Positions 3,038 through 57,706 of a stretch of DNA of 64,000 bases are shown here, piece after piece. Where the stretch lies: assembly GCF_013122565.1 (NCBI RefSeq), contig NZ_CP053258.1. The stretch is one strand, 5' to 3'. Every line of letters begins with the position of its first letter. Position 1 is the stretch's first letter. The notes under the pieces are model-generated. The model was not told where the DNA came from. It worked only from the letters and a program-made list of their open reading frames with translations, and made no database searches. The stretch comes from Escherichia coli (GTDB taxonomy: Bacteria; Pseudomonadota; Gammaproteobacteria; Enterobacterales; Enterobacteriaceae). A program made the translations under genes and the position numbers.

Positions 3038-3994
3038 GTGTCAGCTATGAAAAATGTTCTGGTCACCGTCCCCAGCTTTTCAGCACGCTGTGTTTCCGCC
3101 AGCAAGTTGCTAAGAGAGAATAATTTTAACCTTATTATTAAGAATAATGTGGAGCATCTGCTTAAATCAGAATCCACTGCATTACGAGAATCTATTTGCG
3201 CGGTCATCGCCGGAAAAGATTGTTACCAGGCGGACACGCTATCATTGCTGCCTGGTGTGAGAATAATATCGAGATTCGGGACGGGGATAGATAATATTGA
3301 TCTTCGTGCAGCACAACAATCCGGTATTGTAGTCAATAATGCGGTTGGGATTAATTCAAATGCTGTCGCGGAATTTATCATTGGACTTATCTTCGCGAGC
3401 ATGAGAAATATTCCTGGCAGCTATCATGCGATGCAAAATGGCTACTGGGGTGAGTCGCATGGCTATGAATTACAAGGCAAACGGATTGGCCTGGTTGGCT
3501 ACGGCAATATAGGTAAAACCCTGGCAAAAAGGTTATCCGGTTTTGATGTTGAGCTTTTAGCTTATGACAAACAACCCGATTATCAGGTTGCTGACAAAGT
3601 TGGAGTTCAGTTTGTATCAATTGAAGATATCTTTATGCAGTCGCATGTCATCATTGTTCTTTTGCCTTTTTCTCCTGAGCTGGAGAACTTCATTAGTCAT
3701 AAATATTTGTCGATGATGCGCAATGGTGCTCTAATCATCAATGCCGCAAGGGGAAAGTTGCTGGATGAGGGCGCTTTACTACAGGTGATTGAAGAACGAA
3801 ATGTGTTTGCGGCGCTGGATGTGTTTAGCTCTGAACCGTTGGCGCAATTTAGCCCACTGCTACATGCCAAAAATATCATTACAACGCCGCATATTGCGGC
3901 CGCCACCGTTGAGTCATACCAGCAAACCGGTACACACGTTGCCCAGTCGATAATTGATTACTTCGCAGGAAGGGAGATAAAAAACGTGTTGTGA
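3038..3994 (+). CDS. D-isomer-specific 2-hydroxyacid dehydrogenase, NAD-binding
   Basis: 318 aa. Rossmann GxGxxG (GLVGYGNIGKTLAKRL) and the TPHIAAAT catalytic-region motif. Track start is GTG at 3038; an ATG at 3047 is an alternative. Confidence 0.8.
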   Translation: MSAMKNVLVTVPSFSARCVSASKLLRENNFNLIIKNNVEHLLKSESTALRESICAVIAGKDCYQADTLSLLPGVRIISRFGTGIDNIDLRAAQQSGIVVNNAVGINSNAVAEFIIGLIFASMRNIPGSYHAMQNGYWGESHGYELQGKRIGLVGYGNIGKTLAKRLSGFDVELLAYDKQPDYQVADKVGVQFVSIEDIFMQSHVIIVLLPFSPELENFISHKYLSMMRNGALIINAARGKLLDEGALLQVIEERNVFAALDVFSSEPLAQFSPLLHAKNIITTPHIAAATVESYQQTGTHVAQSIIDYFAGREIKNVL

Positions 3995-5693: not shown

Positions 5694-6500
5694 ATGTCTG
5701 TTGTAATTAGTGATGCCTGGCGTCAGCGTTTTGGCGGCACTGCGCGTCTGTATGGTGAAAAAGCGTTGCAACTGTTTGCTGACGCGCATATTTGTGTGGT
5801 CGGTATTGGCGGTGTCGGTTCCTGGGCGGCGGAAGCGCTGGCGCGCACGGGGATTGGCGCAATCACGCTTATCGATATGGATGATGTGTGCGTCACCAAT
5901 ACCAATCGGCAAATTCATGCCCTGCGCGATAACGTTGGGCTGGCAAAAGCGGAAGTTATGGCGGAGCGTATTCGCCAGATTAACCCGGAGTGCCGTGTAA
6001 CGGTGGTGGATGATTTCGTGACGCCGGATAACGTAGCGCAGTATATGAGCGTGGGTTATTCGTACGTGATTGATGCCATTGATAGTGTACGGCCCAAAGC
6101 GGCGCTGATTGCTTATTGTCGGCGCAATAAAATCCCACTGGTCACAACCGGTGGCGCGGGTGGGCAGATTGATCCGACGCAGATTCAGGTTACCGATCTG
6201 GCGAAAACGATTCAGGACCCGCTGGCGGCGAAGTTGCGTGAGCGCCTGAAAAGCGATTTTGGCATAGTGAAAAACAGTAAAGGTAAGCTCGGCGTGGATT
6301 GCGTGTTCTCTACCGAAGCATTGGTGTACCCGCAGTCAGACGGTACGGTGTGTGCTATGAAAGCCACGGCAGAAGGGCCGAAGCGGATGGATTGTGCATC
6401 TGGATTTGGCGCGGCGACGATGGTGACCGCCACCTTTGGTTTTGTTGCGGTTTCTCATGCGCTGAAGAAGATGATGGCGAAAGCGGCGCGTCAGGGGTAA
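5694..6500 (+). CDS. tcdA: tRNA threonylcarbamoyladenosine dehydratase (E1-like, CsdL)
   Basis: 268 aa. ThiF/MoeB-type fold with GIGGVGSW nucleotide-binding motif. Synteny with csdA/csdE. Confidence 0.93.
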   Translation: MSVVISDAWRQRFGGTARLYGEKALQLFADAHICVVGIGGVGSWAAEALARTGIGAITLIDMDDVCVTNTNRQIHALRDNVGLAKAEVMAERIRQINPECRVTVVDDFVTPDNVAQYMSVGYSYVIDAIDSVRPKAALIAYCRRNKIPLVTTGGAGGQIDPTQIQVTDLAKTIQDPLAAKLRERLKSDFGIVKNSKGKLGVDCVFSTEALVYPQSDGTVCAMKATAEGPKRMDCASGFGAATMVTATFGFVAVSHALKKMMAKAARQG

Positions 6501-9904: not shown

Positions 9905-10300
9905 ATGACCAGCCGTTTTATGCTGATTTTCGCCGCCATTAGCGGCTTCATTTTTGTGGCTCTGGGCGCTTTTGGCGCGCATGTGTTAAGTAAAACCATG
10001 GGGGCCGTTGAGATGGGCTGGATCCAGACCGGCCTCGAATACCAGGCGTTTCATACGCTGGCGATCTTAGGTCTGGCGGTGGCAATGCAGCGTCGCATCA
10101 GTATCTGGTTTTACTGGAGTAGCGTTTTCCTCGCGTTAGGCACGGTGCTGTTCAGCGGCAGCCTTTATTGCCTGGCACTGTCCCATCTGCGTTTGTGGGC
10201 GTTTGTCACTCCGGTTGGCGGCGTGAGCTTCCTTGCGGGCTGGGCGTTAATGTTAGTTGGTGCTATCCGTTTAAAGCGCAAGGGCGTAAGTCATGAATAA
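9905..10300 (+). CDS. ygdD: DUF423 inner membrane protein YgdD
   Basis: 131 aa, hydrophobic. Synteny. Confidence 0.9.
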
Positions 10301-46490: not shown

Positions 46491-46702
46491 GAGTTCCCCG
46501 CGCCAGCGGGGATAAACCGGCGATTATAGCGGACTTTCAAGAGAACAGTCTGAGTTCCCCGCGCCAGCGGGGATAAACCGTGGAAAATCACCGACAATAT
46601 TCGACATGGAGAGAGTTCCCCGCGCCAGCGAGGATAAACCGTTATCGGTCATCAACTATAGCGCGTATTTACTAAGTTCCCCGTTCCAACACGAATAATC
46701 CG
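46491..46702 (+). CRISPR. Type I-E CRISPR mini-array (CRISPR2-like): 3 intact repeats, 1 degenerate terminal repeat, 3 spacers of 32 bp
   Basis: Repeats gagttccccgcgccagcggggataaaccg at 46491, 46552 and 46613 (third has one mismatch). Degenerate repeat 46674..46702. Phase confirmed by the antisense artefact ORF 46379..46597. Confidence 0.95.
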
Positions 46703-48074: not shown

Positions 48075-49874
48075 ATGACGACACAGGTCCCACCTTCCGC
48101 GTTGCTTCCGTTGAACCCGGAGCAACTGGCACGCCTTCAGGCGGCCACGACCGATTTAACTCCCACCCAGCTTGCCTGGGTTTCTGGCTATTTCTGGGGC
48201 GTGCTCAATCAGCAGCCTGCTGCGCTTGCAGCGACGCCAGCGCCAGCCGCAGAAATGCCGGGTATAACTATTATCTCCGCCTCGCAAACTGGCAATGCGC
48301 GCCGGGTTGCTGAAGCATTACGCGATGATTTATTGACGGCAAAACTGAACGTTAAGCTGGTGAACGCGGGCGACTATAAATTCAAACAAATCGCCAGCGA
48401 AAAACTGCTCATCGTAGTGACGTCAACGCAAGGGGAAGGGGAACCGCCGGAAGAAGCCGTCGCGCTGCATAAGTTCCTGTTCTCCAAAAAAGCGCCAAAG
48501 CTGGAAAACACCGCGTTTGCCGTGTTTAGCCTCGGCGATAGCTCTTATGAATTTTTCTGCCAGTCCGGGAAAGATTTCGACAGCAAGCTGGCGGAACTGG
48601 GCGGTGAACGCCTGCTCGACCGTGTCGACGCCGACGTTGAATACCAGGCTGCTGCCAGCGAGTGGCGCGCCCGCGTGGTTGATGCGCTTAAATCGCGTGC
48701 GCCTGTCGCGGCACCTTCGCAATCCGTCTCTACTGGCGCGGTAAATGAAATCCACGCCAGCCCGTACAGCAAAGACGCGCCGCTGGTGGCGAGCCTCTCT
48801 GTTAACCAGAAAATTACCGGGCGTAACTCTGAAAAAGACGTTCGCCATATCGAAATTGACTTAGGTGACTCGGGCCTGCGTTACCAGCCGGGTGACGCGC
48901 TGGGCGTCTGGTATCAGAACGATCCGGCACTGGTGAAAGAACTTGTCGAACTGCTGTGGCTGAAAGGCGATGAACCTGTCACCGTCGAGGGCAAAACGTT
49001 GCCTCTGAACGAAGCGCTACAGTGGCACTTCGAACTGACCGTCAACACCGCCAACATTGTTGAGAATTACGCCACGCTTACCCGCAGTGAAACACTGCTG
49101 CCGCTGGTGGGCGATAAAGCGAAGTTACAGCATTACGCCGCGACCACGCCGATTGTCGACATGGTGCGTTTCTCTCCGGCGCAACTGGATGCCGAAGCGC
49201 TGATTAATCTGCTGCGTCCGCTGACCCCGCGCCTGTATTCCATCGCCTCCTCGCAGGCGGAAGTCGAGAACGAAGTACACGTCACCGTTGGTGTGGTGCG
49301 TTACGACGTGGAAGGCCGCGCCCGTGCCGGTGGTGCCTCCAGCTTCCTCGCGGATCGTGTGGAAGAAGAGGGCGAAGTCCGCGTATTTATCGAACATAAC
49401 GATAACTTCCGTTTGCCTGCTAACCCGGAAACCCCGGTGATTATGATTGGCCCCGGTACCGGCATCGCGCCGTTCCGTGCCTTTATGCAGCAACGCGCCG
49501 CCGACGAAGCGCCGGGTAAAAACTGGCTGTTCTTTGGCAACCCGCACTTTACGGAAGATTTCCTCTACCAGGTGGAGTGGCAGCGCTACGTCAAAGAGGG
49601 CGTGCTGACGCGTATCGATCTTGCCTGGTCGCGCGACCAAAAAGAAAAAGTTTATGTACAAGACAAACTGCGCGAACAGGGCGCGGAGCTGTGGCGCTGG
49701 ATCAATGACGGTGCCCACATTTATGTCTGCGGCGACGCTAATCGCATGGCGAAAGACGTTGAGCAGGCACTTCTGGAAGTGATTGCCGAATTTGGTGGCA
49801 TGGACACCGAAGCGGCGGATGAATTTTTAAGTGAGCTGCGCGTAGAGCGCCGTTATCAGCGAGATGTCTACTAA
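48075..49874 (+). CDS. cysJ: Sulfite reductase [NADPH] flavoprotein alpha subunit
   Basis: 599 aa. Confidence 0.97.
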
Positions 49875-51586
49875 TGAGCAAAAAACATCCAGGGCCTTTA
49901 GTGGTCGAAGGAAAACTGACAGACGCCGAGCGCATGAAGCTTGAAAGCAACTACCTGCGCGGCACCATTGCGGAAGATTTAAACGACGGTCTGACCGGCG
50001 GCTTTAAGGGCGACAACTTCCTGCTGATCCGCTTCCACGGCATGTATCAGCAGGATGACCGCGACATCCGCGCCGAACGTGCTGAACAGAAGCTGGAGCC
50101 GCGCCACGCGATGCTGCTTCGCTGTCGTCTGCCGGGTGGGGTGATTACCACTAAACAGTGGCAGGCGATCGACAAATTTGCCGGTGAAAACACCATCTAT
50201 GGCAGCATTCGCCTGACCAACCGCCAGACGTTTCAGTTCCACGGCATTCTGAAAAAGAACGTCAAACCGGTGCACCAGATGCTGCACTCGGTCGGTCTTG
50301 ATGCGCTGGCGACCGCTAACGACATGAACCGTAACGTACTCTGCACCTCGAACCCTTACGAGTCGCAGCTGCACGCGGAAGCATATGAATGGGCGAAGAA
50401 AATCTCTGAACATCTGCTGCCGCGTACTCGCGCGTATGCGGAGATCTGGCTCGATCAGGAAAAAGTCGCCACCACTGATGAAGAGCCGATCCTTGGTCAG
50501 ACCTACCTGCCGCGTAAGTTCAAAACCACGGTAGTGATCCCGCCGCAGAACGATATCGATCTGCACGCCAACGACATGAACTTCGTGGCGATCGCCGAAA
50601 ACGGCAAGCTGGTGGGCTTTAACCTGCTGGTGGGCGGTGGGCTTTCTATCGAACACGGCAACAAGAAAACCTACGCCCGCACGGCGAGTGAGTTTGGCTA
50701 TCTGCCGCTAGAACATACGCTGGCGGTGGCGGAAGCCGTCGTGACAACTCAGCGTGACTGGGGTAACCGAACCGATCGTAAAAATGCCAAAACCAAATAC
50801 ACGCTGGAGCGCGTGGGGGTTGAGACGTTTAAAGCGGAAGTGGAGCGTCGCGCGGGGATCAAATTTGAACCGATCCGTCCGTATGAGTTCACCGGACGCG
50901 GCGATCGTATTGGCTGGGTTAAGGGCATTGATGATAACTGGCACCTGACGCTGTTTATCGAAAATGGTCGCATCCTTGATTATCCGGGGCGTCCGCTGAA
51001 AACTGGCCTGCTGGAGATCGCGAAGATCCACAAAGGTGATTTCCGCATTACGGCGAACCAGAATTTGATCATCGCCGGTGTGCCGGAAAGTGAGAAAGCG
51101 AAGATCGAGAAGATCGCCAAAGAGAGCGGGTTAATGAATGCCGTCACGCCGCAGCGTGAAAACTCAATGGCCTGCGTGTCATTCCCGACTTGCCCGCTGG
51201 CGATGGCGGAAGCAGAGCGTTTCCTGCCGTCTTTTATCGACAACATCGACAATTTAATGGCGAAACATGGTGTCAGCGATGAGCATATCGTGATGCGTGT
51301 AACAGGCTGCCCGAACGGTTGTGGTCGCGCGATGCTGGCGGAAGTGGGCCTGGTGGGTAAAGCGCCGGGTCGCTACAACCTGCATCTTGGCGGCAACCGC
51401 ATTGGGACACGTATCCCACGGATGTATAAAGAAAACATCACCGAGCCGGAAATCCTGGCGTCGCTTGATGAACTGATAGGGCGCTGGGCGAAAGAGCGCG
51501 AAGCGGGTGAAGGCTTCGGCGACTTTACGGTGCGTGCGGGCATCATTCGCCCGGTGCTCGATCCGGCGCGCGATTTGTGGGATTAA
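49874..51586 (+). CDS. cysI: Sulfite reductase [NADPH] hemoprotein beta subunit
   Basis: 570 aa. Confidence 0.97.
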
Positions 51587-51601
51587 CCATCAGCCCGGTC
51601 T

Positions 51602-51639
51602 TGTAGGCCTGATAAGACGCGTGAGCGTCGCATCAGGCA
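51602..51639. repeat. REP element between cysI and cysH
   Basis: tgtaggcctgataagacgcgtgagcgtcgcatcaggca. Confidence 0.7.
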
Positions 51640-51659
51640 AGGCAAACAGTGAGGAATCT

Positions 51660-52394
51660 ATGTCCAAACTCGATCTAAACGCCCTGAACGAACTGCCGAA
51701 GGTAGATCGCATTCTGGCGCTGGCGGAAACTAACGCCCAACTGGAAAAACTGGATGCTGAAGGCCGCGTTGCCTGGGCGCTGGATAATCTGCCCGGTGAA
51801 TATGTACTTTCTTCCAGCTTTGGTATTCAGGCGGCGGTGAGCCTGCATCTGGTGAATCAGATTCGGCCGGATATTCCAGTGATCCTCACCGATACCGGTT
51901 ATCTGTTCCCGGAAACCTACCGCTTTATTGACGAGTTAACGGACAAACTCAAGCTCAACCTGAAAGTGTACCGTGCTACCGAAAGCGCCGCCTGGCAGGA
52001 AGCACGCTACGGCAAACTGTGGGAGCAGGGCGTTGAAGGCATTGAAAAGTACAATGACATCAACAAAGTCGAACCGATGAACCGGGCGCTGAAAGAACTG
52101 AATGCGCAAACGTGGTTTGCTGGCCTGCGCCGTGAACAATCCGGCAGCCGCGCCAATTTACCGGTGCTGGCAATTCAGCGTGGCGTATTTAAAGTACTGC
52201 CGATTATCGATTGGGATAACCGAACGATATATCAGTATCTGCAAAAGCATGGCCTGAAATATCACCCATTATGGGACGAAGGATATTTATCGGTCGGTGA
52301 TACCCATACAACCCGTAAATGGGAACCCGGCATGGCGGAAGAAGAAACACGTTTCTTTGGTTTAAAAAGGGAGTGTGGGTTACACGAAGGGTAA
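51660..52394 (+). CDS. cysH: Phosphoadenosine phosphosulfate (PAPS) reductase
   Basis: 244 aa from [17 protein letters not shown]. The track ORF begins 51 codons upstream, inside the REP. Confidence 0.95.
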
Positions 52395-53048: not shown

Positions 53049-54392
53049 GTGACTTTCTTTGATTTCTGGGGAAAAACCCGACGTGGCGAGAAAGAAGGGG
53101 GCGACGGCTATCACCTTCTTTGCTGGCATTCGCTGGATGTGGCCGCGATGGGCTATTTAATGGTTAAAAGAAATTGCTTCGGGCTGGCTGACTATTTTCG
53201 TCAATTAGGGATTTCTGACAAGGAACAGGCAGCTCAATTTTTCGCCTGGTTGCTGTGCTGGCACGATATTGGAAAATTTGCCCGCTCTTTTCAACAACTT
53301 TACCTGCCCCCTGAATTCAAGATTCAGGAAGGTGCCAGAAAAAATTACGAAAAAATCTCTCATTCAACGCTGGGCTACTGGTTGTGGAATCATTATTTAA
53401 GTGAATGTCAGGAGTTACTTCCTTCATCTTCGCTCTCTCCGCGCAAACTTAGGCGAGTGATAGAAATGTGGATGCCCGTGACGACAGGGCATCATGGTCG
53501 GCCCCCTGATCGTATGGATGAATTGGATAATTTTCTGCCTGAAGACAAAGCTGCAGCACGAGATTTTCTCCTTGAAATCAAACCACTGTTTCCGCTCATA
53601 GAGATCCCCGCATTCTGGGATGATGATGAGGGCATTGAACTTATAAAACACCTTTCCTGGTATATCTCTGCAACCGTCGTGCTCGCAGACTGGACGGGTT
53701 CGTCAACGCGATTTTTTCCACGCGTCGCACACCCAATGGATATTAAAGGTTACTGGCAGAAAACTTTAGTTCAGGCTCAAAATGCCTTAACCGTCTTTCC
53801 TCTAAAAGCAAAAGTCGCGCCTTTCACCGGAATTAATACGCTGTTTCCTTTTATTGAGAATCCGACACCGTTACAGCAAAAGGTGCTGGATCTGGATATC
53901 AGCCAGCCAGGGCCACAGTTATTTATTCTGGAAGATGTGACTGGCGCAGGTAAAACGGAAGCGGCGCTTATCCTGGCGCACAGGTTGATGGCTGCGGGTA
54001 AAGCGCAGGGTTTGTTTTTTGGCCTGCCAACAATGGCAACGGCCAATGCCATGTATGATCGGCTCGTCAAAACCTGGCTTTCTTTCTATTCGCCAGAATC
54101 TCGCCCCAGCCTGGTGCTGGCACACAGTGCCCGCACATTAATGGACCGCTTTAATGAATCACTCTGGTCCGGTGATTTAATCGGGTCAGAAGAACCGGAT
54201 GAACAAGCTTTCAGCCAGGGTTGTGCGGCCTGGTTTGCCGACAGTAACAAGAAGGCGTTGCTGGCTGAAATTGGCGTCGGCACCCTGGATCAGGCGATGA
54301 TGGCAGTGATGCCGTTTAAACATAATAATCTGCGGCTTCTGGGGCTGAGTAACAAAATCGTGTTCCCCGCGCCAGCGGGGATAAACCGATGA
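53049..54392 (+). pseudogene. cas3: Truncated cas3 (type I-E; HD nuclease domain and start of helicase domain only), fused to the CRISPR array
   Basis: 447-aa ORF with a GTG start. HD motif WHDIGKF and Walker A TGAGKTEAA. Collinear with the N-terminal half of K-12 Cas3 (888 aa, from memory). The frame runs through CRISPR repeat 1 (...NKIV|FPAPAGINR) and stops in spacer 1. Confidence 0.88.
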
Positions 54393-56647
54393 ATATTTGC
54401 GAATATTCGGCAGAAAGCGGGTGTTCCCCGCGCCAGCGGGGATAAACCGAGGTTGCGGCACAAATTGAGGTTGTCGCAAATGTGTTCCCCGCGCCAGCGG
54501 GGATAAACCGCCGACGCAGCAGCGGCAGCAGCGGCAGCAGCGGTGTTCCCCGCGCCAGCGGGGATAAACCGTGGATCAGTGCCGCGTTCTCTCTCCGTGT
54601 AATGTGTTCCCCGCGCCAGCGGGGATAAACCGATCGAGACGGGTACGCGTAAAGCCGAGCTGGCGTGTTCCCCGCGCCAGCGGGGATAAACCGCGATCGG
54701 TTAATTCTTCTACCTGCCTTTGCAGGTGTTCCCCGCGCCAGCGGGGATAAACCGCCCGCAATGCATTCGGGCAGTTCCTTGCCGGGGTGTTCCCCGCGCC
54801 AGCGGGGATAAACCGGAGATTGAGCCAGACGCCCGCCAGGTGTTACTGTGTTCCCCGCGCCAGCGGGGATAAACCGGAAGTAACACACCCAACCCAGGTT
54901 GCGCCAGAGTGTTCCCCGCGCCAGCGGGGATAAACCGCCTGTTTGAGCAGGCGCGAATGAACCGGACCAGTGTTCCCCGCGCCAGCGGGGATAAACCGTC
55001 AGGTAAGCCAGTGTTAGGGGCAATATAGCAGTGTTCCCCGCGCCAGCGGGGATAAACCGTCATCGGCTCGTTATTTGTAGCCAGCACTACGGTGTTCCCC
55101 GCGCCAGCGGGGATAAACCGCTTTATCAGATGGTAAAGGTGAATCAATATGAGTGTTCCCCGCGCCAGCGGGGATAAACCGATACCCCAGCGTTTCGTTA
55201 TATGACGGAAGATGTGTTCCCCGCGCCAGCGGGGATAAACCGTGCAACCAGGACGGCAGGACGCATCGCCAGATGTGTTCCCCGCGCCAGCGGGGATAAA
55301 CCGCACGTTATTATCCGATATTCACCGATAAGCGTGTGTTCCCCGCGCCAGCGGGGATAAACCGTCTGGGCGTAAACAGTCGGATAAATCGCGGGTGTGT
55401 TCCCCGCGCCAGCGGGGATAAACCGGCGGCGTGTGGGGTAACAATCAGGGAGAGAAAGTGTTCCCCGCGCCAGCGGGGATAAACCGGATAAATACAGTAT
55501 ATTCCCGCGCTCTGCTGGCGTGTTCCCCGCGCCAGCGGGGATAAACCGTAGATTTTGTCCGGCTCAGGTGCGCCGATGGTGTGTTCCCCGCGCCAGCGGG
55601 GATAAACCGATCGAGTACAACAAAAAATATACTGAGTGAGTGTGTTCCCCGCGCCAGCGGGGATAAACCGCTGTTTGCTCCTGCTGCTCATTTAGTGATT
55701 TAGTGTTCCCCGCGCCAGCGGGGATAAACCGCCTGTTCTTTTTTAGTCAACTTAACCATGCTCGTGTTCCCCGCGCCAGCGGGGATAAACCGTCTTTTTC
55801 GAGACTTGCAGCAACGCTCTGAAAGTGTTCCCCGCGCCAGCGGGGATAAACCGATCGAGTAGTTTTGAGGGTTGGTGAATTCAGGGTGTTCCCCGCGCCA
55901 GCGGGGATAAACCGCTTAATAAATGGACTTAAGCGCCCAGTATTGGGTGTTCCCCGCGCCAGCGGGGATAAACCGGGGAGGGCGAGCCGCCGTAGGTGCG
56001 GTGAGGGGTGTTCCCCGCGCCAGCGGGGATAAACCGACGCAGAAACTGGTTGAAATAGTTTACGGTGAGTGTTCCCCGCGCCAGCGGGGATAAACCGGCA
56101 GTAAATTATTTGACCTCGTTGATAATCCCGTGTTCCCCGCGCCAGCGGGGATAAACCGGTGGCGGTGTGATTGTGGGACTTATTGCCATCGTGTTCCCCG
56201 CGCCAGCGGGGATAAACCGGGCCTTTTCAGCAGATTAACCGCCGCGATTGCGTGTTCCCCGCGCCAGCGGGGATAAACCGAGAGATTTATATTCTTTCAA
56301 ACCGGATTATATCGTGTTCCCCGCGCCAGCGGGGATAAACCGCTTCAAGAATTTTTAAACGCTGGCTTCAAAATGTGTTCCCCGCGCCAGCGGGGATAAA
56401 CCGTCCCACGCGTGCCAGATGGCGCGTTTGATGGCGTGTTCCCCGCGCCAGCGGGGATAAACCGATGATAACGGCAAAGGGTACGCTACGTACAACGTGT
56501 TCCCCGCGCCAGCGGGGTTAAACTGTGATCCAGTGAGTACCGATCCGGGAACAACCGGTGTTCCTCGCATCAGCGGGGATAAACCGGGTGCACTGGATGC
56601 GATGATGGATATCACTTGGCGTTCCCCCGCCCCTGCGGTAGAACTCC
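54360..56647 (+). CRISPR. Type I-E CRISPR array: 37 repeat-spacer units plus a highly degenerate terminal repeat; no leader, no adjacent cas operon
   Basis: 29-bp repeat gtgttccccgcgccagcggggataaaccg with period 61. Spacers are 32 bp except one of 33 bp (55487..55519). Repeat phase verified against the antisense artefact ORFs ([10 protein letters not shown] / VYPRWRGEH / GLSPLARGT). Degenerate repeats at 56497, 56558 and 56619 mark the leader-distal end, next to iap. Confidence 0.97.
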
Positions 56648-56668: not shown

Positions 56669-57706
56669 TCAAGACGCCTTCGCCAACTCCTTCACCAGAG
56701 GTAGCATTATCCGCATAACGTCACGGCAGCGACGTTCTATTCTTCCAGGAAGTGCCTTATCAATATGCTGTTGATTATCCAGTCTTACGTCATGCCAGCT
56801 ATTTCCCGCAGGGAATGCGGCTGTTTTTGCGCGTTGCTGATAACCATCCTTATTCCCAAGATTCCAGTTAGTCGCTTCCACCGAAAGTACAGCAATGCCC
56901 GCTTTGTCGAATATTTCGGCGTCATTACAACATCCAGTGCCTTTCGGATAATTTTTATTCAAACCCGGATTGGTCGTTGCGGCAATTCCATGACTACGCG
57001 CAATTGCCAGCGCCCTGTCGCGCGTTAATTTCCTTACTGCTTCAGGGGTTTTTACACCGCTGTTGAAATACAATTTATCGCCAACAATTAAGTTATCGAG
57101 ATTAATCACCAGCAGCGTATTTTTCTTTTCGGTGTCACTCATCCGCTTGAGTAAATTCTCAGCGCCTAATTTTCCTTCCTCTTCGCCGCTGGTCGCCACA
57201 AATCGAATACCATACTCGGTAGGCGTATTTTTCAGGCGTTCTGCCAGTTCCAGCATGACACCTAAACCTGCGGCGTTATCATCTATTCCTTGTAACGTCA
57301 GTCCGCCGAGATTGGCATCGGCGTCAGCATCGCTCAGCGGGGCGTAAGTATCCAGATGCGCCATAATGATGATCTGCTGCGGCGCTTTGCCTTCATGAGC
57401 GGCAATCACCGTACTTCCCGTCACGTTATGCCAGCTCTTACGATTATCGCGGGCGGTATAAATATATCGACTATTAAATGTCCGAATATCACTGCGATAA
57501 CCCATTTGCTGAAACTGTTGGCGAATATAATCGGCAGATAACATTTCTGCAGGAGTTCCGGTCATGCGTCCCGGAAAGAAAGTAGCAATATGTCGTGCCT
57601 GGGTATTAGCAAAATCGCCAGGTTTAGGTGACGAGGCGTGTACGGGGAGAATAAAGCATACGCCGAGCGCCAGGGCAGCGGTACGGTGGCGCAATGCGGA
57701 AAACAT
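56669..57706 (-). CDS. iap: Alkaline phosphatase isozyme conversion aminopeptidase Iap
   Basis: 345 aa, signal peptide, M28-type peptidase. Confidence 0.93.
   Translation of the reverse strand: MFSALRHRTAALALGVCFILPVHASSPKPGDFANTQARHIATFFPGRMTGTPAEMLSADYIRQQFQQMGYRSDIRTFNSRYIYTARDNRKSWHNVTGSTVIAAHEGKAPQQIIIMAHLDTYAPLSDADADANLGGLTLQGIDDNAAGLGVMLELAERLKNTPTEYGIRFVATSGEEEGKLGAENLLKRMSDTEKKNTLLVINLDNLIVGDKLYFNSGVKTPEAVRKLTRDRALAIARSHGIAATTNPGLNKNYPKGTGCCNDAEIFDKAGIAVLSVEATNWNLGNKDGYQQRAKTAAFPAGNSWHDVRLDNQQHIDKALPGRIERRCRDVMRIMLPLVKELAKAS

Follow-up and report, generated by a model that had tools for sequence, protein, structure and literature searches.

The locus described here raises the question of why three spacers of a single CRISPR array begin with the same six bases. 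The window that we analysed is a stretch of 64,000 nucleotides of the Escherichia coli contig NZ_CP053258.1, and window positions are counted from its first base. Among the 37 spacers of the array, spacer 5 (S5; 54633-54664, + strand) reads ATCGAGACGGGTACGCGTAAAGCCGAGCTGGC, spacer 21 (S21; 55610-55641, + strand) reads ATCGAGTACAACAAAAAATATACTGAGTGAGT and spacer 25 (S25; 55854-55885, + strand) reads ATCGAGTAGTTTTGAGGGTTGGTGAATTCAGG, and each of them is 32 nt long and lies between error-free repeats. S5 begins with ATCGAGAC and both S21 and S25 begin with ATCGAGTA, so that the six bases ATCGAG are common to all three. Extraction between the 29-nt repeats gave these spacers and prefixes at the positions reported in the initial annotation, which had considered repeated acquisition next to a conserved motif, a slipped repeat-spacer boundary, and chance with biased composition as possible explanations.

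The array (54360..56647, with the crRNA sense on the + strand) has about 38 repeats: GTGTTCCCCGCGCCAGCGGGGATAAACCG occurs in 35 exact copies and two degenerate ones, and the terminal repeat (56619-56647) is degenerate as well. The spacers are 32 nt long, except for two of 33 nt. The 29-nt repeat GWGTTCCCCGCGCCAGCGGGGATAAACCG, the period of about 61 nt and the spacer lengths of 32-33 nt are those of a type I-E system. The array adjoins iap (56669-57706, - strand), which encodes a protein that very many E. coli share in identical form, and sits between iap and cysJIH (48075-52394); accordingly, it represents the CRISPR-I / CRISPR2.1 locus of E. coli, lying between iap and cysH with cas-E adjacent in the form of a cas3 fragment. 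This truncated cas3 (53049..54359, + strand) retains the HD domain and the first part of the helicase and abuts base 1 of the first repeat. It belongs to the non-K12 (E1) variant, showing 97% identity to the E1-type cas3 of strain HSP425 and 18/20 matches to the published cas3E1-R primer site, and no alignment at the nucleotide level with the K-12-type cas3. No AT-rich leader precedes the main array, where the cas3 coding sequence lies directly 5' of the first repeat, and cse1 to cas2 are absent upstream. Because the leader and the genes from cse1 to cas2 have been lost and cas3 is truncated, the array can neither acquire spacers nor interfere, and it is a cas-less, now inactive fossil.

Two further observations were made around this array. 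Spacer 3 (54511-54542) contains a tandem 9-mer, CCGACG(CAGCAGCGG)x2 CAGCAGCG, and is of a low complexity that is unusual for a spacer. A second, small array of the CRISPR2.2-3 type (46491-46702), with GAGTTCCCC... repeats, 3 spacers and an intact AT-rich leader, is located only about 1.4 kb from cysJ. This closeness suggests the deletion of roughly 12 kb from queD to the CRISPR locus that has been reported in some lineages (PMC5359238).

In nominal terms, the shared prefix is improbable. The expected number of triples with a common 6-mer prefix was 4.6e-4 for uniform composition and 5.1e-4 for the actual spacer composition, and in 200,000 per-spacer shuffles the probability of at least three spacers having a common 6-mer prefix was 4.2e-4, in good agreement with the earlier estimate of about 0.0005. 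When the 8-mer common to S21 and S25 is counted in, the nominal P becomes roughly 1e-4. The four bases are almost equally frequent in the spacers (A.25, C.22, G.27, T.25), and composition therefore does not account for the match; accordingly, of the proposed chance with biased composition, the chance part stands as the best explanation and the biased composition is to be dropped. When any common offset is permitted and not just the 5' end, P rises to 1.3%, and an equivalent triple was present in 1 of the 61 harvested arrays that had 10 or more spacers (L041, at offset 7, in plainly unrelated spacers). After allowing for the post hoc choice of position, the prefix triple is thus a 1-in-100 type event.

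If the prefix reflected a general preference of acquisition or processing, it should be visible in other arrays, a check that the initial annotation had proposed for E. coli. An exact-repeat scan of 100,044 species-representative genomes gave 79 stretches from Escherichia, Salmonella, Citrobacter, Klebsiella, Pectobacterium, Serratia, Pantoea and other genera, to which we added E. coli arrays located via iap and eight more arrays from complete genomes. Two loci that had been retrieved through the motif itself, including the E. coli array L100, were left out. The final set comprised 1,589 unique unbiased spacers and 89 same-repeat arrays, 17 of which were from E. coli (counting L100, which was excluded). 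None of the 1,589 spacers started with ATCGAG or with ATCGA, and those starting with ATC made up about 1%, against 1.6% expected. Spacer positions 1-10 showed no strong nucleotide bias in the harvested arrays. Same-array pairs with a common 6-mer prefix numbered 6 against 5.7 expected, no harvested same-repeat array contained a prefix triple, and the sole pair with a common 8-mer prefix was a near-duplicate spacer. A random model fits the harvested arrays, and a general bias toward the prefix is excluded down to roughly 0.2%.

We then consider the sources of the three spacers. S5 matched the Citrobacter freundii plasmid NZ_CP032182.1 at 28/32 positions, with the PAM ATG, within a gene adjoining hicA. 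The four mismatches are all located at third codon positions, the peptide IETGTRKAELA is conserved, and the target protein has a HicB-like_2 domain (Pfam PF15970) and an HTH. S5 corresponds to the sense strand of this gene, in which ATG|ATC GAG ACG encodes Met|Ile-Glu-Thr and the Met codon serves as the PAM. A contig from E. coli (L123) matched S5 at 24/32 positions with the same amino acids and the same PAM, its site being ATG|ATAGAAACCGGCACACGCAAAGCAGAGTTGGC, and the genes RepL, DarA, LydB and ddrB mark this contig as a P1-like phage-plasmid. From these alignments, S5 derives from the hicB-like antitoxin gene of P1-like phage-plasmids. The hexamer varies among the homologues of this site, where ATCGAG, ATTGAA and ATAGAA occur as synonymous Ile-Glu codons.

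S25 leads to a different gene. It matched L106-L108, in DNA of two E. coli homologues, at 23/32 positions (22/24 over the first 24 nt) in antisense orientation with the PAM ATG, and the site falls in the linker part of a gene with a KilA-N domain that Rac-like lambdoid prophages carry. In this case, ATCGAGTA is the complement of TAC TCG AT, which encodes Tyr-Ser-Ile. The site reads ATCGAG or ATTGAA, and one homologue has ATTGAATA where S25 has ATCGAGTA. Judging from these homologues, S25 comes from the antisense strand of a KilA-N gene of a Rac-like lambdoid prophage. A metagenome scan for the repeat end followed by ATCGAG returned just two real arrays, one of which was L100 (OJJY01000007.1), a CRISPR2-type array of E. 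coli from a metagenome that is present also in five complete genomes (H144-H148). Spacer 6 of L100, ATCGAGTAGCTGTGTGGGCTGGTAGATGCAGA, is identical to S25 at 24/32 positions in register, compared with a random maximum of about 22 identities among 1.39 million spacer pairs. In a scan with its first 20 nt, this spacer matched the IMG/VR prophage contig L103 at 23/23 positions, again antisense in a KilA-N domain gene; a search of IMG/VR for related loci returned only this KilA-N contig. S25 and L100 spacer 6 thus map to one site in variants of the KilA-N gene, and this site has demonstrably been sampled independently by another E. coli lineage and is sampled repeatedly in nature. Homologous sites are known to be sampled independently, and homologous spacer pairs occur even within one array (L071, L076), with similar pairs in other Enterobacterales arrays. 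S25 and L100 spacer 6 resemble such recurrent ('hot') protospacer sampling in that they hold the same register of diverged homologues; this accounts for the likeness of S25 to a spacer of another genome, but not for the three-way prefix within the array. The neighbouring spacer 7 of L100 has a 32/32 match to traG of F-type plasmids, at more than 2,400 places in plasmids.

Other spacers of the array could also be traced. Spacer 4 (S4; 54572..54603, + strand) matched L105 at 10259-10290 with 31/32 identities and the PAM ATG. Like S25 it targets this KilA-N gene, here on the sense strand, at a distance from the S25 site of about 50 nt for its near end and of about 115 nt from start to start. Spacer 15 (S15; 55243) has a 32/32 match, with the PAM ATG, to a replication gene of the prophage carrying the S4 target, and spacer 9 (S9) matched the integrase of this prophage at 27/32 positions, in a diverged site flanked by AAA. 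Spacers 22 and 24 (S22 at 55671 and S24 at 55793, together 55671..55824, + strand) each have a 32/32 match with the PAM ATG to recE (exoVIII), on the same strand, in a lambdoid prophage at the ttcA site of E. coli STEC384 (L090, 20001-20032 and 20831-20862); they lie between S21 and S25, and the intervening S23 has no traced source. Spacer 28 (S28; 56037..56068, + strand) has a 32/32 match with the PAM ATG to a ParB/Srx-like gene, again in the STEC384 prophage. In total, the targets of at least 7 of the 37 spacers lie in Rac-like lambdoid prophages, and that of one lies in a P1-like phage-plasmid. A distance of 830 nt separates the two recE sites, which are on one strand, and this is a pattern that primed adaptation or repeated exposure would produce. 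In strain STEC384, perfect protospacers with an ATG PAM are present and the cas operon has been lost, as is the case in the window.

These matches define the PAM of the array. ATG lies directly 5' of the protospacers of S4, S15, S22, S24 and S28 (31-32/32 identities) and of the homologues of S5 and S25, so that all traced protospacers are flanked by ATG, except for the diverged S9 site (AAA), and the motif is not the AAG of K-12. The non-K12 cas-E1 / 'cas-EO' variant has the protospacer motif CWT, corresponding to ATG/AAG on the spacer strand (PMC3737337; Almendros et al. 2014, PMC3903273), and CAT was found for 34/55 protospacers of leader-A arrays (Diez-Villasenor et al. 2013, PMC3737337). 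The predominance of ATG on the spacer strand in our array agrees with the acquisition specificity (CWT) of cas-E1 / 'EO'. With its 29-nt repeat, 32-nt spacers, position between iap and cysH, E1-type cas3 and ATG PAM, the array resembles the CRISPR-I cas-E1 / 'cas-EO' array of E. coli, but differs from the standard cas-E1 CRISPR2.1 array in the loss of the leader and of cse1 to cas2, and in having a truncated cas3 fused to a repeat. Apart from this loss, it is a standard member of the CRISPR2.1 cas-E1 group, and no new feature is implied.

S21 is AT-rich (28% GC), and no credible source was found for it in phages, plasmids, the 5,426 E. coli genomes or IMG/VR exact 20-mers. A BLAST search of S21, S5 and S25 against 50,697 phage genomes gave no match, nor did a distant-mode search of the three (E<=10) in 5,426 complete E. 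coli genomes; in the plasmid collection, the S5 homologue was the only credible match among the three spacers. A metagenome scan for the protospacers of S21 and S25 was anchored on AAG, whereas the PAM of the array is ATG, and its outcome is uninformative. Several apparent matches of S21 were rejected. A plasmid match upstream of a phosphoethanolamine transferase gene (25/27, gapped, E=4) does not cover the prefix and is attributed to chance. Exact 20-mers of S21, S25 and S5 were scanned against IMG/VR and either found nothing or gave matches that fell in AT-rich phage contigs of the Gram-positive type, diverged beyond the 20-mer and had no PAM, and the first 20 nt of S21, which are exact in L092 at 5878-5897 and occur also in L091 and L093, had neither a PAM nor further identity; both are likewise ascribed to chance. 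In one temperate-phage contig, the 20-mer of S21 forms the C-terminal codons ...VIEYNKK* of an excisionase-like ORF. The idea of S21 as a truncated hicB variant, with the reading MIEYNKKYTE*, was unsupported.

Considering the two traced spacers together, S5 and S25 come from different genes on different mobile elements and from opposite coding strands, and the upstream flanks of their sites, caacgccATG and tgaggtaATG, have the ATG PAM alone in common. Since the sources are unrelated, the flanks have nothing but the PAM in common and the hexamer varies among the homologues of either site, we consider that the three-way ATCGAG match is probably a coincidence with no common mechanism behind it. 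Repeated acquisition at a conserved motif therefore fails for the triple as a whole, one site being hicB sense and the other KilA-N antisense, and the significance of the prefix as a signal of a shared invader does not survive for the two traced spacers, whose targets are unrelated. S5, S21 and S25 would be ordinary type I-E spacers, each acquired independently and each excised directly 3' of ATG, the PAM that the cas-E1 variant prefers. The six bases after the PAM would be whatever the invader encoded there, namely sense Ile-Glu codons of a phage-plasmid hicB in S5 and the complement of the Tyr-Ser-Ile codons of KilA-N in S25, and the ATCGAG start would have no mechanistic cause. We infer that S21 is unrelated in origin too, and hence that its agreement is pure chance. 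The low nominal P of 4-5e-4 for the triple speaks against pure chance, and the independence of S21 is assumed.

A narrower form of repeated acquisition, confined to S21 and S25, may hold. It is possible, if doubtful, that these two spacers share one ATG PAM of origin, carried by two variants of a modular phage gene whose antirepressor-like product combines a variable DNA-binding domain at the N-terminus with a conserved C-terminal module that starts at Tyr-Ser-Ile. ATG followed by ATCGAGTA would then be the edge of the conserved module, the remainders of the spacers would cover non-homologous N-terminal or upstream sequence, and S5 alone would be left to chance (about 35/4096 or 0.9%). Such an origin expects an S21 protospacer ATG|ATCGAGTACAAC..., with the complementary strand running into ...IITSFCDG.... 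The resampling of the S25 site in the same register from a diverged homologue, by L100 and the 5 complete genomes (24/32), favours it, as do the homologous same-array pairs of L071 and L076 and the position of S21 within a block of spacers (S22, S24, S25, S28) from Rac-like lambdoid prophages. Also, the C-terminal module is shuffled among phage proteins, where it follows KilA-N, Bro-N, ORF6N, Rha-like or other N-terminal regions, and the homology of these fusions to one another sets in at Y-[SEA]-[IVF], exactly where the agreement of S21 and S25 stops. However, past the first 8 nt the two spacers agree at only 6/24 positions, which is random, and the sequence of S21 was found beside the module in none of the protein and DNA collections searched. 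An exhaustive search of representatives with the C-terminal module gave 4 clusters, none of which contained the S21 peptide, and where the module was fused to a region other than KilA-N, the sequence was YYEI or NYSF and not YSI. In the frame of the module, S21 reads THSVYFLLYSI, unlike the Pro/Ser/Thr-rich linker of the known members. We regard it as a tentative proposal, therefore, that S21, S25 and the CRISPR2 spacer of other lineages mark one ATG PAM at an N-terminal-domain swap junction. If true, one array would record two recombinant versions of one phage gene, and the 8-mer would mark the recombination boundary.

Two other explanations are far less probable. All three units begin with G|ATC, formed by the last repeat base and the spacer, and the nominal P is 4e-4; this could point to a preference of the adaptation machinery or of a prespacer nuclease for ATCGAG starts, for example through G^ATC cleavage (PAM G + ATC = GATC). 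We hold this to be very unlikely, since the 1,589 unbiased spacers described above lack the prefix and are not enriched in ATC starts, a GATC rule would cover just 3 of the 6 common bases, and homologues of the sites have no GATC (ATG|ATTGAA, ATG|ATAGAA). A GATC or restriction-end origin of the prefix is thus unsupported. An AA dinucleotide at the PAM-distal end of the protospacer reportedly affects acquisition in the E. coli type I-E system, as described by Yosef et al. in 2013. Such a motif is comparable in that bases inside the protospacer influence the frequency of sampling, but it is a 2-nt motif located at the other end of the spacer, and none of S5, S21 and S25 ends in AA; a PAM-proximal hexamer preference was not visible in the 1,589 spacers. 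Least probable of all, to the point that we give it hardly any weight, is that the prefix arose from a slipped or mis-called boundary, or from an artefact of assembly or recombination. Nothing speaks for an artefact beyond the common bases themselves, whereas each flanking repeat is a perfect 29-mer, each of the three spacers has precisely 32 nt, and the protospacers of S5 and S25 align from spacer base 1 right after ATG, as do those of five other spacers. Coincidence is therefore the reading that we retain for the triple.

The junction between cas3 and the array was also compared with other genomes. In the window (53049-54360), the truncated cas3 is joined exactly to base 1 of the repeat, at about nt 1356 of cas3, and the leader and cse1 to cas2 are deleted. 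Five other complete E. coli genomes have the same architecture, with junctions at 3075|3076 (L110), 2002|2003 (L117), 2852|2853 (L118), 2974|2975 (L119) and 3266|3267 (L120) and cas3 breakpoints at nt 1196, 1569, 2047, 2169 and 2459, so that six of six independent cas3 truncations end at the first base of a repeat. As the cas3 breakpoints differ and the joint with the repeat is constant, the distal endpoint of the deletion is always the 5' edge of a repeat. One cas3-repeat fusion has been described in O156:H8 isolates (PMC5359238). Recombination between a self-spacer and its cas3 protospacer was considered for these junctions; the PAM positions before the last 32-33 nt of cas3 read ATA, CGT, TCT, ATA, ATG and GAG at the six junctions. 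Most of them are no PAM, which speaks against a simple recombination of this kind and leaves it only weakly supported. The junctions are compatible with integrase-type joining at the repeat boundary.

In summary, our results indicate that a shared prefix which looks striking in a CRISPR array may be coincidental and does not have to stem from the chemistry of adaptation. The set of 1,589 spacers, in which the sharing of prefixes occurs at the random expectation, provides a calibrated null for claims of this kind. Also, the cas3-repeat junctions of E. coli could be of more interest than the shared prefix.
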